Source: a phage
Direction: 5' to 3' (one strand)
Sequence record: PZ179882.1
Length of the DNA stretch: 64,000 bases
The translations under genes and the position numbers were made by a program. Positions 2,936 through 40,145 of this stretch are shown here, in pieces; positions within the stretch are counted from its first letter, which is position 1, and each line of letters opens with the position of its first letter. The notes under the pieces are model-generated. The model was given only the letters and a program-made list of their open reading frames with translations. It was not told the DNA's origin and ran no database searches.

Positions 2936-4136
2936 ATTTTGTAATAATGTCAAACTGTTCTTTAAAGCAGAAGCTTGAATCTTGATGCTGATACAAAAAT
3001 TCATAAGCTTTTTCGCGTTCGCGATCATAAAGAGCTCGGTCAGATGACAGTTCTTTAATACGTTCAAATGTTGATTCCATGTCATTTTCATCAAACCAAA
3101 CGATACCGCTATCGTGTGAAATTAATGGAGTATTATCAACACGGAATTTTAAATTTTCGCCAGTAGATTTCCAAAATACTGGAATTGTTCCACATGCACC
3201 AAGCTCGAGATGAGTGTATTCTAAAGAACGCTGTAGATATTTTTTGTCCAACTTACTCAGCTGATAACCAAATCCGGATTTACTCATGCGTTCAAGCATT
3301 TCGCTATTTACATAACGGTCGAGAATTTGCGTTGGCAAATTAGGAGCAATTTTAATTTGGTCTACTTGATGAAGACGATAATACTCGTATGGAATTCCTT
3401 TTTCTTTAATAGGAATGAATGCTGGAGAACGTTCCAGACCTTCCATAATAGTACTTAGTCCTGCAGGTTTAAGATGTTTTTCATGAAAATCAAACATCTG
3501 ATAAAAGCCTTTCCATGTAGTAGTACGACCAATCCAACGGTTGATATTCATGTTAATTTCAGAAACATCTTTCCAGTAGGTTGATCGAACCTTCGCAATA
3601 TCCATAGGAGGCTGAAAGTTATATACGGTCGGTGCTTCTTCAATATCATCAAACAGAGAAACAGTTTCCGGATACCATTCTTTCATCAAAACTTTATTAA
3701 AGTCACCATTATCAGAATGGCTAAAAATAACATCAGCTCGACGAACAGTTTCTTCTAATCCCAAATTTCGACGCAAAGAAAGAGAAGAATGGTCATGCTG
3801 ATAAACTACAACACGAACCGAAGGTTTAATGTTATCAATAATTTTTTTATAGTTATTAATGGTGTCTTCTTCTACTGAAGTAGCAGGAACTGAATTGATA
3901 ATTAAAATATCGCAATCATTTACCAGTTTAAGTGTTTTATCGTATTCTTTTGCCAATAAAACCGGAATTGAAAATGACTTATAATCATGTGCGCAATTAC
4001 GAGTAAATGATTTATCTTTAGCATAAACCAAAGTTACTTCATGACCATTTTTAATAAACCAATCACGTTGCTCAAGAGAAAATTTAGTTACACCGCAACC
4101 TTCAAGACCTCGAGCCATAAAAATACATACTTTCAT
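2934..4136 (-). CDS. a-gt: DNA alpha-glucosyltransferase
   Basis: 400 aa, same length as T4 alpha-glucosyltransferase; N-terminus CIFMARGLEGCGVTKFSLEQRDWFIKNGHEVTLVYAKDKSF recognised. Confidence 0.9.
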   Translation of the reverse strand: MKVCIFMARGLEGCGVTKFSLEQRDWFIKNGHEVTLVYAKDKSFTRNCAHDYKSFSIPVLLAKEYDKTLKLVNDCDILIINSVPATSVEEDTINNYKKIIDNIKPSVRVVVYQHDHSSLSLRRNLGLEETVRRADVIFSHSDNGDFNKVLMKEWYPETVSLFDDIEEAPTVYNFQPPMDIAKVRSTYWKDVSEINMNINRWIGRTTTWKGFYQMFDFHEKHLKPAGLSTIMEGLERSPAFIPIKEKGIPYEYYRLHQVDQIKIAPNLPTQILDRYVNSEMLERMSKSGFGYQLSKLDKKYLQRSLEYTHLELGACGTIPVFWKSTGENLKFRVDNTPLISHDSGIVWFDENDMESTFERIKELSSDRALYDREREKAYEFLYQHQDSSFCFKEQFDIITK

Positions 4137-36048: not shown

Positions 36049-36522
36049 TCATTTGATTTGTTTAGCAGACCAAATGCGGTCTTTAATAATTTTTTGGATG
36101 TCTTCAACATACTCAAGAGAGTGAACATGTGGATTATCTTTGAAACTATAAGCACGGGCTAACTTTTGGCCTTCGGTTTTGATTACTAAAAGCTCTTTAA
36201 GGATAGCTTCATATTTAGCGATAATTCCTTTAACGATATTTTTTTCTTGTGCCGCTTTAGGATCTGCTTTAGGAGCAGGTTTACCCGAAGCCTTTGCAAA
36301 AGCAGCGCCAGTAGCAACTAAACTTTTCCAGGCCATACTAACTGCATTTCCCGTAAATCCTTCCGCTTTCATGTCGCGTGCAAACTGGAATCGCGATTCA
36401 TCAGAAGCATCTTTATAGGAATATTTACCCGCGGCAATGGCAGCTTTTGCAACAGCTTGAATTTCGGTGCTAGATGCTTCATTTAACACCGCTTCATTTA
36501 AAAATTGAGTATATGATTTCAT
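36049..36522 (-). CDS. Internal-protein-like protein (MKSYTQFLNEA N-terminus)
   Basis: ORF track 36049..36699 runs into the RNA region; ATG at 36522 with AGGAAA RBS; 157 aa; flanked by identical 31-bp hairpins. Confidence 0.55.
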   Translation of the reverse strand: MKSYTQFLNEAVLNEASSTEIQAVAKAAIAAGKYSYKDASDESRFQFARDMKAEGFTGNAVSMAWKSLVATGAAFAKASGKPAPKADPKAAQEKNIVKGIIAKYEAILKELLVIKTEGQKLARAYSFKDNPHVHSLEYVEDIQKIIKDRIWSAKQIK

Positions 36523-36570
36523 CTTATTTCCTGTTTTAATTTGTAGATTTAATATACTAATATTTATACC

Positions 36571-36601
36571 AAAAAGCCCCAACCTTTCGGTCGGGGCTAA
36601 G
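36571..36601 (-). terminator. Terminator-like hairpin, copy 2 of the 31-bp repeat
   Basis: Identical 31-mer to 36014..36044. Confidence 0.55.
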
Positions 36602-36905
36602 CCTTGCGGCAACCTTGTCGGGGTTCCACCTGCTAAGGCAAGTGTTTGTACGAAACGCCGGGATTCGAACCCGGTTATTAAGTAGTTGACGCTACTCAAT
36701 ATTTTTAAAAGGCCATATCTCGACCATATCCGAACGTTCCGTCAAAAACGCTACTCGGCTTACGGCAAAGATATTTCCTCGAATCGATAATTCGGTGCGC
36801 CGTTTCTGCTGTGATAGTAAAGAGCCAGAACACAGTAAAACTGTGGGAGGAAACTATACTCCAGGGAACATCAGTCCGACGACTTACCGGTAGCGACCCG
36901 GTTTC
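36602..36905 (-). ncRNA. Structured non-coding region with a tRNA-like 3-prime half; candidate small stable RNA(s)
   Basis: No credible ORF; T-arm-like CCGGGTTCGAATCCCGG (36658..36674) plus hairpins; no complete cloverleaf. Confidence 0.3.
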
Positions 36906-37274: not shown

Positions 37275-37350
37275 TGGTCGAGGCAGTAGGGATCGAACCT
37301 ACGACCTAGGACTTAGAAGGTCCTTGCTCTTCCTTCTGAGCTATGCCCCG
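37275..37350 (-). tRNA. tRNA-Arg (anticodon UCU)
   Basis: 76 nt cloverleaf folded by eye; loop CUUCUAA; T-loop GTTCGATCC; encoded CCA. Confidence 0.85.
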
Positions 37351-37354
37351 TAAT

Positions 37355-37429
37355 TGGGTGACCGATGGGAGTCGAACCCATGACTACGAGAATCACAATC
37401 TCGAGTTCTACCAACTGAACTACGGCCAC
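37355..37429 (-). tRNA. tRNA-His (anticodon GUG)
   Basis: 75 nt cloverleaf; loop UUGUGAU; T-loop GGTTCGACTCC; encoded CCA. Confidence 0.8.
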
Positions 37430-37543
37430 ATTAATACCTACTCCAACAATCAAGATGTCTTCACACGAAATTAAGAGAAGAGTGATCAGTTCAACCCCTA
37501 TAATCGCGTCAAGTAGATATTAATGTGACAGTTGTCACAAATT

Positions 37544-37618
37544 TGGCGGACGTGATAGGATTCGAACCTATAACCAATCGCTTAACAGGCGATCGCTCTG
37601 CCATTGAGCTACACATCC
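37544..37618 (-). tRNA. tRNA-Asn (anticodon GUU)
   Basis: 75 nt cloverleaf; loop CUGUUAA; encoded CCA. Confidence 0.8.
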
Positions 37619-37622
37619 AAAT

Positions 37623-37709
37623 TGGTGGGGAGTGATGGAGTCGAACCACCCGAGTCGCAATGACAATGGATTTACAGTCCACACCGCTACCTCTACGGGA
37701 TAACTCCCC
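37623..37709 (-). tRNA. tRNA-Tyr (anticodon GUA)
   Basis: 87 nt with long variable arm; loop CUGUAAA; encoded CCA. Confidence 0.75.
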
Positions 37710-37721
37710 TAATTCGTAATT

Positions 37722-37796
37722 TGGTGGCCCTGGGTGGAATTGAACCACCATCTGGCGATTATGAGTCGCTTGCTTGAACCTTCCAGCTACAGGGCC
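37722..37796 (-). tRNA. tRNA with CAU anticodon (Met, or Ile if C34 is lysidine-modified)
   Basis: 75 nt cloverleaf; loop CUCAUAA; one mismatch in D and anticodon stems. Confidence 0.75.
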
Positions 37797-37797
37797 T

Positions 37798-37873
37798 TGG
37801 TGCTGATTGACGGAATCGAACCGCCGACCTTCTCATTACAAGTGAGTTGCTCTACCTACTGAGCTAAATCAGC
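37798..37873 (-). tRNA. tRNA-Thr (anticodon UGU)
   Basis: 76 nt cloverleaf; loop CUUGUAA. Confidence 0.85.
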
Positions 37874-37878
37874 AAAAC

Positions 37879-37968
37879 TGGCGGAGGCGATAGGATTTGA
37901 ACCTATGAGTCGCCGGAGCGACTGCCGGTTTTCAAGACCGGTGCATTAAACCACTCTGCCACGCCTCC
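37879..37968 (-). tRNA. tRNA-Ser (anticodon UGA)
   Basis: 90 nt with long variable arm; loop CUUGAAA. Confidence 0.8.
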
Positions 37969-37970
37969 AG

Positions 37971-38044
37971 TCTCCGTGGCAGGATTTGAACCTACGACAT
38001 TCTGCTCCCAAAGCAGACGCTCTACCAAACTGAGCTACACGAAG
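37971..38044 (-). tRNA. tRNA-Pro (anticodon UGG), CCA not encoded
   Basis: 74 nt; loop UUUGGGA; 3-prime end lacks CCA. Confidence 0.8.
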
Positions 38045-38054
38045 TAAATTAAAT

Positions 38055-38128
<74 letters not shown>

Positions 38129-38133
38129 AAATT

Positions 38134-38220
38134 TGGTGCGAGAAGTGGGACTCGAACCCACAAGGAAATCATTCCGCAGCATTTTAAGTGCTGTGCCTTT
38201 ACCAATTTGACCATTCTCGC
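38134..38220 (-). tRNA. tRNA-Leu (anticodon UAA)
   Basis: 87 nt with long variable arm; loop CUUAAAA. Confidence 0.85.
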
Positions 38221-38226
38221 TCTATA

Positions 38227-38859
38227 TTATTTATTACGTGAAAAAGATTGTTCTATCAATTCTGGACACTTTCGTTCTATCCATTTTCTAGCTTTTTGTG
38301 GGCTTATACCTATTATTTTAGCAGCTTTACTAACCCATCCAAATTTAGAATAATCGATTTTAACTAATTCTTCGTAAATTTCATCAGTTAAAATCTTTTC
38401 ATTAATATTTACCAGTAAATGATATAATTTATTATCATTAGCAATTTTAATGAATCTTTTATAGTTTCCGCCTTTACTTAAACCTAATGAAGTAATTGCA
38501 GATGATATAGTAGCTGAATTTAATAGTGCGTTTAAAATTTCTTCATCACTAACATTATAACGCTTTTTATTATTTTTAATATTTTTACCGGCAAAAGTAT
38601 CAGTTTGCGAATGGCAATTTGGACATAATAATCTTAAATTTGATTTAAGATGATTTTTGTTATTTCCATCAATATGGTCTAATTGCAGAACAATATGCTT
38701 ATTTTGCCATTTTGAAATTTTACAAATTGCACACTCATATGGAAAAATATTTTCTTTTATTATTTTGTCTTTCAGCTTTCCTGTACTAAAATTTGGATGT
38801 TTTCCTTCAAAAATTTCAGCTAATTTAGTATCCATAATATAATTCCCAATTATTAACAA
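38227..38859 (-). CDS. HNH homing endonuclease
   Basis: 210 aa; LQLDHIDGNNKNH...LRLLCPNCH HNH motif; stop 6 nt upstream of tRNA-Leu; start may be 38835. Confidence 0.65.
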   Translation of the reverse strand: MLIIGNYIMDTKLAEIFEGKHPNFSTGKLKDKIIKENIFPYECAICKISKWQNKHIVLQLDHIDGNNKNHLKSNLRLLCPNCHSQTDTFAGKNIKNNKKRYNVSDEEILNALLNSATISSAITSLGLSKGGNYKRFIKIANDNKLYHLLVNINEKILTDEIYEELVKIDYSKFGWVSKAAKIIGISPQKARKWIERKCPELIEQSFSRNK

Positions 38860-38945
38860 AGGCTCTCAAACAAGAACCCTTGATGATAGAGGGTATTAAT
38901 CAGTGCGATATGAGTTAATAATAACAAATAATTCTTAAAGCATAT

Positions 38946-39235: not shown

Positions 39236-39634
39236 TCAGCCTTCATCAACAATAGTGTGAGTATTAGCATTTACGATTTGCCACCAATCAAAGCGATTAG
39301 AATCCATCGGTTTGTTTTCATTTTCTTTGATAATGTCACGGAGTTCATCTTCAGAGAATGCTTTAGCAATTAAATCGGTATACCCACCACGGGGATAATA
39401 ATTATCACCTGCAAACAAAAGGAAATTTACCTTCCCGGAAGCAACATATGCTTCCTTAGGATACTTGTTTCCTGCGTGGTCAACCACTTCAATATAACGG
39501 TAAGGAATATCGGTTCTTTCAACCCATTGCCATGCCGCCGCAGGGGAATCGAAAGCATCTACACCTAAACGATTATCTTCATCTTTAGACGGATTATTTT
39601 CGTAATCCGCATATACATAATATTCAACGTTCAT
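39236..39634 (-). CDS. Hypothetical protein
   Basis: ORF track 132 aa. Confidence 0.5.
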   Translation of the reverse strand: MNVEYYVYADYENNPSKDEDNRLGVDAFDSPAAAWQWVERTDIPYRYIEVVDHAGNKYPKEAYVASGKVNFLLFAGDNYYPRGGYTDLIAKAFSEDELRDIIKENENKPMDSNRFDWWQIVNANTHTIVDEG

Positions 39635-39877: not shown

Positions 39878-40111
39878 TTATTTTTTACGAAAAATTGATT
39901 TATTTTCTGCTGCCCATTTTTCAATAACTGCAGCAGGACCAGTAACAACAATTTTATCACCGTAATCTTCTGCGGCGAGTTGACCGAAATTATCTAATGC
40001 ATCACGAAGAACTCCATGAGGCATTTCACCCATTTTATCTTTCTTGCCGGTGTAAATAAACTCAACTTTTACATCAGCAGTTTCAGCAATAAATTCTTGG
40101 TAAGTTTTCAT
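39878..40111 (-). CDS. Internal protein I-like (capsid-targeted)
   Basis: ORF track 39878..40123; MKTYQEFIAE capsid-targeting sequence starts at 40111; 77 aa; position upstream of 57B as T4 ipI. Confidence 0.6.
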   Translation of the reverse strand: MKTYQEFIAETADVKVEFIYTGKKDKMGEMPHGVLRDALDNFGQLAAEDYGDKIVVTGPAAVIEKWAAENKSIFRKK

Positions 40112-40145
40112 TTTGATTTCCATTTGGTTTTGTTTTGATAGGGTA

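Follow-up and report, generated by a model that had tools for sequence, protein, structure and literature searches.

We analysed a stretch of 64,000 nucleotides (nt) of phage DNA (sequence record PZ179882.1; henceforth the window), which belongs to a Tequatrovirus (a T4-like phage), and focused on a predicted HNH endonuclease gene which stands at the head of the tRNA operon, where T4 carries tRNA-Gln. The explanation we favour, to which we give a probability of about 0.72, is that this is a free-standing homing endonuclease gene of the T5 hegA/F-TflIV family, which took the place of tRNA-Gln as the leading gene of the Tequatrovirus tRNA operon and spreads by homing. The comparisons rest on GenBank phage records and metagenome contigs; over the 2.5 kb around the HNH locus, the window shares 99.2% identity with phages UTI-E4 and S2_01, and 98.3% with vB_EcoM_ACG-C40 (ACG-C40).

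To locate the junctions, we aligned five HNH-bearing genomes (the window, ACG-C40, BP32, KarlGJung and HEMP5) with five HNH-less ones (T4, T2, RB14, slur13 and PYPS2T). In T4, trna.2 is followed by a spacer of 97 nt, tRNA-Gln, a single nucleotide and tRNA-Leu, in that order; an earlier note on this DNA had likewise put tRNA-Gln of T4 at the equivalent position and segB elsewhere in the cluster, and segB indeed lies between tRNA-Ile and tRNA-Arg in T4. Homology across the ten genomes is unbroken through trna.2, the entire spacer and the first 9 nt of tRNA-Gln, then breaks, and it picks up again exactly at position +1 of tRNA-Leu, in pairwise alignments as well as in the ten-genome alignment. 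Between these two points the window carries a cassette of 619 nt which has no counterpart in the tRNA-Gln-bearing relatives. The features of the junction are as follows.

38840..38848, minus strand: tRNA-Gln remnant, the first 9 nt of the gene, TGGGAATTA (alignment to T4, T2, RB14, slur13 and PYPS2T)
38221..38839, minus strand: inserted cassette of 619 nt, made up of TATT, the coding sequence and the 6-nt tail TATAGA
38227..38835, minus strand: HNH endonuclease coding sequence, 202 amino acids, ATG start, TAA stop
38134..38220, minus strand: tRNA-Leu(UAA), called by ARAGORN, Rfam tRNA 59.3 bits, identical to the tRNA-Leu of T4
37275..38128, minus strand: nine further tRNAs called by ARAGORN (Gly, Pro, Ser, Thr, Ile/Met-CAU, Tyr, Asn, His and Arg)

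The 9 nt of the remnant, which read TGGGAATCA in some HNH-bearing phages, open an intact tRNA-Gln in each of the five HNH-less genomes. The last 1-3 nt of the cassette tail match the 3' end of tRNA-Gln and the following spacer in some alleles; since the tail of HEMP5 ends in AGC, that is, the last two nucleotides of tRNA-Gln followed by the spacer C, the former tRNA-Gln gene probably contains the whole insertion. ARAGORN called ten minus-strand tRNA genes at 37275-38220, running from tRNA-Leu to tRNA-Arg in transcription order, and no tRNA-Gln in the tRNA cluster of the window, which tRNA-Leu therefore leads; slur13 is annotated with the same ten tRNAs plus tRNA-Gln. Judged from these alignments, the HNH gene replaced tRNA-Gln at the head of the operon, and tRNA-Gln was the first occupant, because the truncated tRNA fragment sits in register with the leader. 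The suggestion of the earlier note that the endonuclease may have displaced a tRNA gene is thus borne out by the remnant and the exact junctions, and the alignment which it had proposed for finding the insertion point places it after nucleotide 9 of tRNA-Gln and up to tRNA-Leu +1.

The same note had described the gene as an open reading frame (ORF) of 210 amino acids. An uninterrupted minus-strand ORF of that length does exist (38227..38859, if read from a TTG) and its match to HNH families stands, but the start has to be revised: translation probably begins with the ATG at 38835, for a product of 202 amino acids, because GenBank annotations of the same gene are 609 nt long and the N-termini of homologues align there, and the TTG at 38859 falls within sequence common to HNH-less phages. 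The stop codon TAA (38229..38227) is followed by TATAGA (38226..38221) and then by tRNA-Leu +1 at 38220, which agrees with the 6-nt gap reported earlier. A full-length match to PHROG 14736, together with 3127 database homologues at E<=1e-5, shows that this is no chance ORF.

PHROG 14736, annotated as ‘HNH endonuclease’, matches the protein over its full length with E=5.5e-124, and 12 further HNH PHROGs match the N-terminal third (13 HNH-annotated PHROG families in all); no GIY-YIG family was found among the Pfam or PHROG matches. The Pfam HNH profile PF01844 scored below threshold (17.3 bits against a gathering cut-off of 21.4); the homologues P0003 and P0004 (see below) each have a weak PF01844 match. 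Weak Pfam matches to helix-turn-helix (HTH) domains were found at residues 165-193. The protein can be divided into three parts.

About residues 30-85: N-terminal Zn-bound HNH nuclease domain
About residues 97-141: middle helical module
About residues 165-194: C-terminal HTH-like region

In an alignment of 36 homologues, extending down to 37% identity, the invariant positions were C35, C38, D53, H54, G57, N66, L70, C71, P72, N73, C74, H75, T78 and G83. These include the HNH catalytic residues of the beta-beta-alpha-metal motif (D53-H54, N66 and H75) and all four cysteines of a CxxC...CxxC zinc site flanking the motif (C35, C38, C71 and C74), a site which marks the His-Me finger clade comprising McrA, GVE2, Mob and F-TflIV (PMC5714182). 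The earlier note had named loss of the motif residues in related genomes as an outcome that would speak against an endonuclease, and the opposite was found. An AlphaFold2 model (mean predicted local distance difference test score, pLDDT, of 88.6; predicted template modelling score, pTM, of 0.48, typical of domains on a flexible string) places strands at 51-54 and 67-70 and a helix at 72-75, followed by eight helices, and its fold is similar to solved HNH domains. A search of PDB chains with the family profile returned nothing but TraI hits, which were marginal and confined to the linker region and which we took as noise. Taken on sequence and model, the protein is an HNH nuclease (His-Me finger superfamily) whose C-terminal region is HTH-like and whose activity is predicted.

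HNH DNA was found in 64 records of the phage collection, at one copy per record and 97.4-99.7% identity, and at the same site in every record inspected. The tRNA-Gln state, detected with a 100-nt probe spanning tRNA-Gln and its junction with tRNA-Leu, was found in 464 records, so that about 12% of the records with this locus carry HNH; universal presence at the site, which the earlier note had also considered, is therefore not what we see. The two states occur in otherwise near-identical phages. PYPS2T carries tRNA-Gln, yet 6 of 7 compared segments are 99.3-100% identical to the window (tRNAs 99.3%, trna.2 99.7%, trna.3 100%, 57B 100%, 57A 99.6%) and the intergenic region is 98.1% identical; PYPS2T and the HNH-bearing KarlGJung are classified as one species. 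Conversely, BP32 has flanks 95-99% identical to those of the window and a trna.3 allele only 71% identical, but its HNH gene is 99.5% identical. By these comparisons, HNH is more conserved than, and discordant with, the flanks that carry it, which argues for recent spread of the cassette. Between HNH alleles, the ratios of synonymous to non-synonymous codon differences were 9:0, 3:0 and 5:1, and the KarlGJung gene (within L004 2501-3118) has an in-frame tandem duplication of 9 nt, by which Asn-Ile-Lys occurs twice in a row in the lysine-rich linker that follows the HNH domain; we thus conclude that the protein is under purifying selection. As read from the sequence records, the presence/absence pattern is that of a selfish element and not that of a fixed beneficial gene.

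Three other explanations were weighed against homing. One is that the nuclease persists through some benefit to the phage, such as the exclusion of competitors' markers, the degradation of foreign DNA or the countering of a host defence, with the loss of tRNA-Gln being incidental. The strong purifying selection on HNH would fit this, as would the finding that in three or more divergent T4-like lineages related genes take the same syntenic place (after gene 1-57A-57B-trna.4/.3/.2, heading the tRNA cluster) and the documented SegB-type marker exclusion in this region (PMC2330249). However, only the above minority of Tequatrovirus records carry HNH, the 68% homologue described below is missing from every Klebsiella T4-like record of the phage collection, and near-identical phages differ only by the presence of HNH; marker exclusion, moreover, itself follows from homing, so that this explanation and ours overlap. 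We consider it unlikely as an account in its own right. Somewhat less likely still is that the gene is an immobile relic, i.e., a single old insertion which now spreads only by ordinary homologous recombination between co-infecting phages and whose protein is inactive as a nuclease or only binds DNA. Many T4 mob genes are without demonstrated activity (Table 1, PMC2988022), the Pfam HNH match is below threshold, and no co-conversion tract around the Tequatrovirus cassette was visible in the flanks of the ten aligned genomes, all of which would fit a relic. Set against this are the invariance of every catalytic and zinc-ligand residue across distant homologues, the almost exclusively synonymous substitutions, and a cassette that is better conserved than its flanks.

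The remaining alternative reverses the order of events: the HNH arrangement would be ancestral, and tRNA-Gln would have come later into most Tequatroviruses. Related HNH genes do head tRNA clusters in other T4-like genera, but HNH-bearing genomes keep exactly the first 9 nt of tRNA-Gln, continuous with the upstream leader, and such a truncated tRNA is readily explained only if an intact tRNA-Gln came first. Furthermore, tRNA-Gln is the majority state (464 versus 64 records) and its two alleles have diverged from each other, but the alleles of HNH hardly differ, which points to HNH as the more recent arrival; we therefore regard the reverse order as very improbable.

As the sequence comparison shows, an ancestral event set the HNH gene inside tRNA-Gln, removing nucleotides 10 to about 71 and leaving 9 nt of the 5' end. 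Under homing, the further history of the locus would run as follows. In a mixed infection, the enzyme would then cut or nick the DNA of an HNH-less relative in or near tRNA-Gln, and recombinational repair from the HNH-bearing genome would copy HNH in and delete tRNA-Gln; genomes with HNH would be immune because the target is gone, and the cost to the phage would be the loss of a dispensable tRNA. We propose a possible target in the body of the tRNA-Gln gene from comparing alleles: tRNA-Gln is deleted in Tequatrovirus and altered in a Marfavirus-like contig (see below). The body of tRNA-Gln is the only systematic allele difference between HNH-bearing and HNH-less phages, which is compatible with a target there, and the ten-genome alignment revealed no HNH-linked single-nucleotide polymorphisms (candidate immunity polymorphisms) in tRNA-Leu, tRNA-Gly or the leader. 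On the other hand, free-standing T4 endonucleases often cut far from their own genes (PMC2988022).

The expression of the gene can be read from the sequence upstream of it.

38918..38942, minus strand: MotA-dependent middle promoter homologous to T4 PtRNAsc1 (exact match; sequence identical to that of T4)
38836..38911, minus strand: 5' leader of 76 nt, common to HNH-less phages (from a predicted start)

The promoter consists of the MotA box TGCTTTA (38942..38936), a 12-nt gap and the -10 element TATTAT (38923..38918), in agreement with the MotA box consensus and 12-bp spacing given in PMC2988021. The T4 counterpart PtRNAE (PtRNAsc1) is an experimentally identified middle promoter, from which the tRNA subcluster of T4 is transcribed. 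Its listed T4 position, 72593 (Table 1, PMC2988021), comes 7 nt after the conserved -10 element when counted on the T4 genome and would place the transcription start of the window near 38911. Given this conserved promoter 76 nt upstream, HNH is presumably the first cistron of the precursor transcript of the tRNA operon. The leader holds a conserved hairpin (about 38857..38882), and the sole Shine-Dalgarno-like sequence before the ATG is a GGGA which derives from the tRNA-Gln remnant and lies 8 nt ahead of the AUG. HNH would thus be translated from a weak ribosome-binding site on the tRNA precursor, and cleavage by RNase P at tRNA-Leu +1 would end its message 6 nt past the stop codon without a protective hairpin; as the 3' end of the message would be left unprotected, low expression is to be expected. 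Control of messages via tRNA processing has been proposed for segB, which abuts tRNA-Arg, and for the T5 F-Tfl genes (PMC2330249). We also considered a long-range stem predicted over the GGGA and the AUG (RNA fold with a minimum free energy, MFE, of -23.1 kcal/mol, z=-2.14), to which we give little weight as an occluder of the start codon: it is weak, lacks covariation support, and a natural T>C variant of the remnant breaks a pair. A scan for generic sigma-70 promoters and terminators gave promoter counts near the shuffled expectation and no terminators, and Rfam found only tRNAs in the region and in the Klebsiella-phage contig.

By sequence, T5 hegA/F-TflIV, an H-N-H site-specific endonuclease (Akulenko et al. 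2004, PMID 15456135, cited in PMC2330249 and PMC5714182), is the closest characterised relative among those found. The two proteins share an HNH domain and a C-terminal HTH, with 35% identity over 170 amino acids (BLASTP E=2e-22, residues 16-184 against 71-210; tblastn coverage 83%), and both genes are free-standing within a phage tRNA cluster, hegA lying 23 nt after tRNA-Ile2. In GenBank, the ACG-C40 orthologue is labelled ‘HNH endonuclease’ and ‘similar to T5 H-N-H endonuclease TflIV’. Unlike the window protein, however, T5 hegA has 227 amino acids, a 55-residue N-terminal extension and no middle ‘GLSxGGNYxR’ module; the proteins are distant, their phages belong to Demerecviridae and Straboviridae, respectively, and the neighbouring tRNAs differ. 

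In lifestyle only, the best functional analogy is T4 SegB. Its gene, too, is free-standing, belongs to the same tRNA operon and directly adjoins the 5' end of a tRNA (tRNA-Arg in the case of segB), and it is polymorphic for presence or absence (among T-even phages for segB). SegB homing replaces tRNA genes of the recipient T2L, and SegB recognises DNA of the tRNA T-arm motif (PMC2330249). By contrast with the HNH protein, SegB is a GIY-YIG enzyme with an unrelated fold and catalytic motif, and its gene, flanked by tRNA-Ile and tRNA-Arg, does not head the operon. Besides HNH, BP32 has a 666-nt ‘homing endonuclease’ gene (L003 1187-1852) which abuts tRNA-Arg at the segB position, so that two unrelated endonuclease genes can share one operon. 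T4 MobA-E, which are placed in one His-Me finger clade with F-TflIV (PMC5714182), have the same lifestyle and the same arrangement of an N-terminal HNH and a C-terminal DNA-binding region, but differ in their insertion sites (the nrd, alpha-gt and gene 39 regions; PMC2988022). Similarity to the T4 Mob HNH proteins was undetectable by tblastn at E<=1e-5, and mob-bearing T4-like records in general were unmatched: the matches comprised only 80 Escherichia-phage records, roughly as many as the 53 HNH-bearing Escherichia records and the T5-like phages together would account for. Finally, HNH genes in the tRNA clusters of mycobacteriophages have been proposed to diversify tRNA repertoires (PMC6409571), a likeness of concept in other phage groups.

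We examined ten genomic contexts of the family (the window, T5 hegA and eight metagenomic homologues), and in all ten the gene is within or next to a phage tRNA array, its distance to the nearest tRNA ranging from a 10-nt overlap to 514 nt. The metagenomic contexts include the following (identity to the window protein first).

P0002: 68%, 14 nt after tRNA-Gln
P0003 and P0004: 58%, at the head of a tRNA cluster after gene 1-57A-57B-trna.x, on Erwinia-phage-like contigs
P0007 and P0010: about 41%, flanked by tRNAs on both sides
P0008: 43%, 3' end overlapping tRNA-Lys by 10 nt
P0061: 43%, between two tRNA-Leu genes
P0086: 41%, on a 465-kb contig, with tRNA-Leu 10 nt away

A scan of IMG/VR viral contigs yielded no relatives that tblastn confirmed. 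The Marfavirus-like contig carrying P0002 is about 96-97% identical to Klebsiella Marfavirus phages, and P0002 itself is absent from all Klebsiella T4-like records of the phage collection. Its cassette stands in place of the tRNA-Asn of AmPh_EK29; compared with that phage, the contig shows 2 differences in 237 nt upstream and then 13 in about 50 nt, beginning in tRNA-Gln after nucleotide 24, meaning that its tRNA-Gln resembles a co-converted and possibly cleavage-resistant allele. In L011, a non-coding, GC-rich stretch of about 400 nt (3607-4009) separates the HNH homologue from tRNA-Met and has a nearly identical counterpart in AmPh_EK29; it opens with the tRNA-Leu-like GCGAGACCAAGCTGGTAA, where ARAGORN calls no tRNA and Rfam has no match. 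As a tentative extension, which we hold to be rather doubtful as it stands, this HNH clade may specialise in tRNA-gene DNA (here the body of tRNA-Gln(UUG)) and drive the loss and replacement of tRNAs across T4-like genera, T5-like phages and jumbo phages, with carriers escaping either by deletion of the target, as in Tequatrovirus, or by a co-converted resistant allele, as in the Marfavirus-like contig.

In Tequatroviruses there are two tRNA-Gln(UUG) alleles with compensatory changes throughout the anticodon stem (the T4/T2 type in about 136 records and the RB14/PYPS2T type in about 311), and trna.3 (window 39236-39634) has two alleles about 71% identical in DNA between flanks that are otherwise 95-100% similar; T2 is without trna.3. 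A third state of the site was found in Shigella phage Sf25 (L023 1439-1533). Here a deletion between similar D-arm sequences has joined the first approximately 19 nt of tRNA-Gln to the D-loop region of tRNA-Leu, at the cost of most of the former gene and the 5' end of the latter; the product is probably a defective chimeric tRNA, and a deletion of this kind could follow repair of a break within tRNA-Gln. There is also a second presence/absence cassette, an ORF of 171 amino acids matching PHROG 2290 (E=1.7e-65), which lies between trna.2 and the tRNA promoter, where its insertion remodels the 3' end of trna.2. It was found in T2 (L005, 2819-3334), Sf25 (L023, 1606-2121), HEMP5 (L008) and others, HEMP5 having both this ORF and HNH.

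Elsewhere in the tRNA region of the window, the 114-nt spacer between tRNA-Asn and tRNA-His (37430-37543, minus strand) is predicted to fold (MFE -36.9 kcal/mol, z=-3.84) with a closing stem of about 19 bp and has no Rfam match; as with the species 1 and 2 RNAs of T4, the spacer may encode a small stable RNA or serve as a processing element. The tRNA at 37722-37796 (minus strand), called by ARAGORN as tRNA-Met (CAU), has an orthologue annotated as tRNA-Ile (lysidine-modified CAU) in T4, RB14 and KarlGJung. The ipI region, from 57B to trna.4, varies in gene content among the compared phages. Two minus-strand ORFs of the window, at 39878-40123 and 36049-36699, have MKTYQEFIAE and MKSYTQFLNE, respectively, near their starts, which we take to resemble the capsid-targeting sequence of T4 internal head proteins.

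We found no description of this HNH gene or of the replacement of tRNA-Gln in the literature; the concept that HNH genes reshape phage tRNA sets is already there, and the gain is in that sense incremental. What the locus adds is a view, at single-nucleotide resolution, of a selfish nuclease gene removing a tRNA gene from a phage operon, which explains why this group of phages has 10 rather than 11 tRNAs and supplies an HNH counterpart to the characterised GIY-YIG enzyme SegB in the same operon. It also offers a testable system for intron-less HNH homing into a tRNA gene, and one that is directly accessible because close sequenced relatives exist, e.g., Bas37 KarlGJung of the BASEL collection with HNH and T4 or PYPS2T without it. 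For the wider family, the consistent placement in or beside tRNA arrays suggests that it contributes to the rapid turnover of phage tRNA repertoires, a turnover which bears on how phages keep or lose the tRNAs that counter host tRNA-targeting defences.
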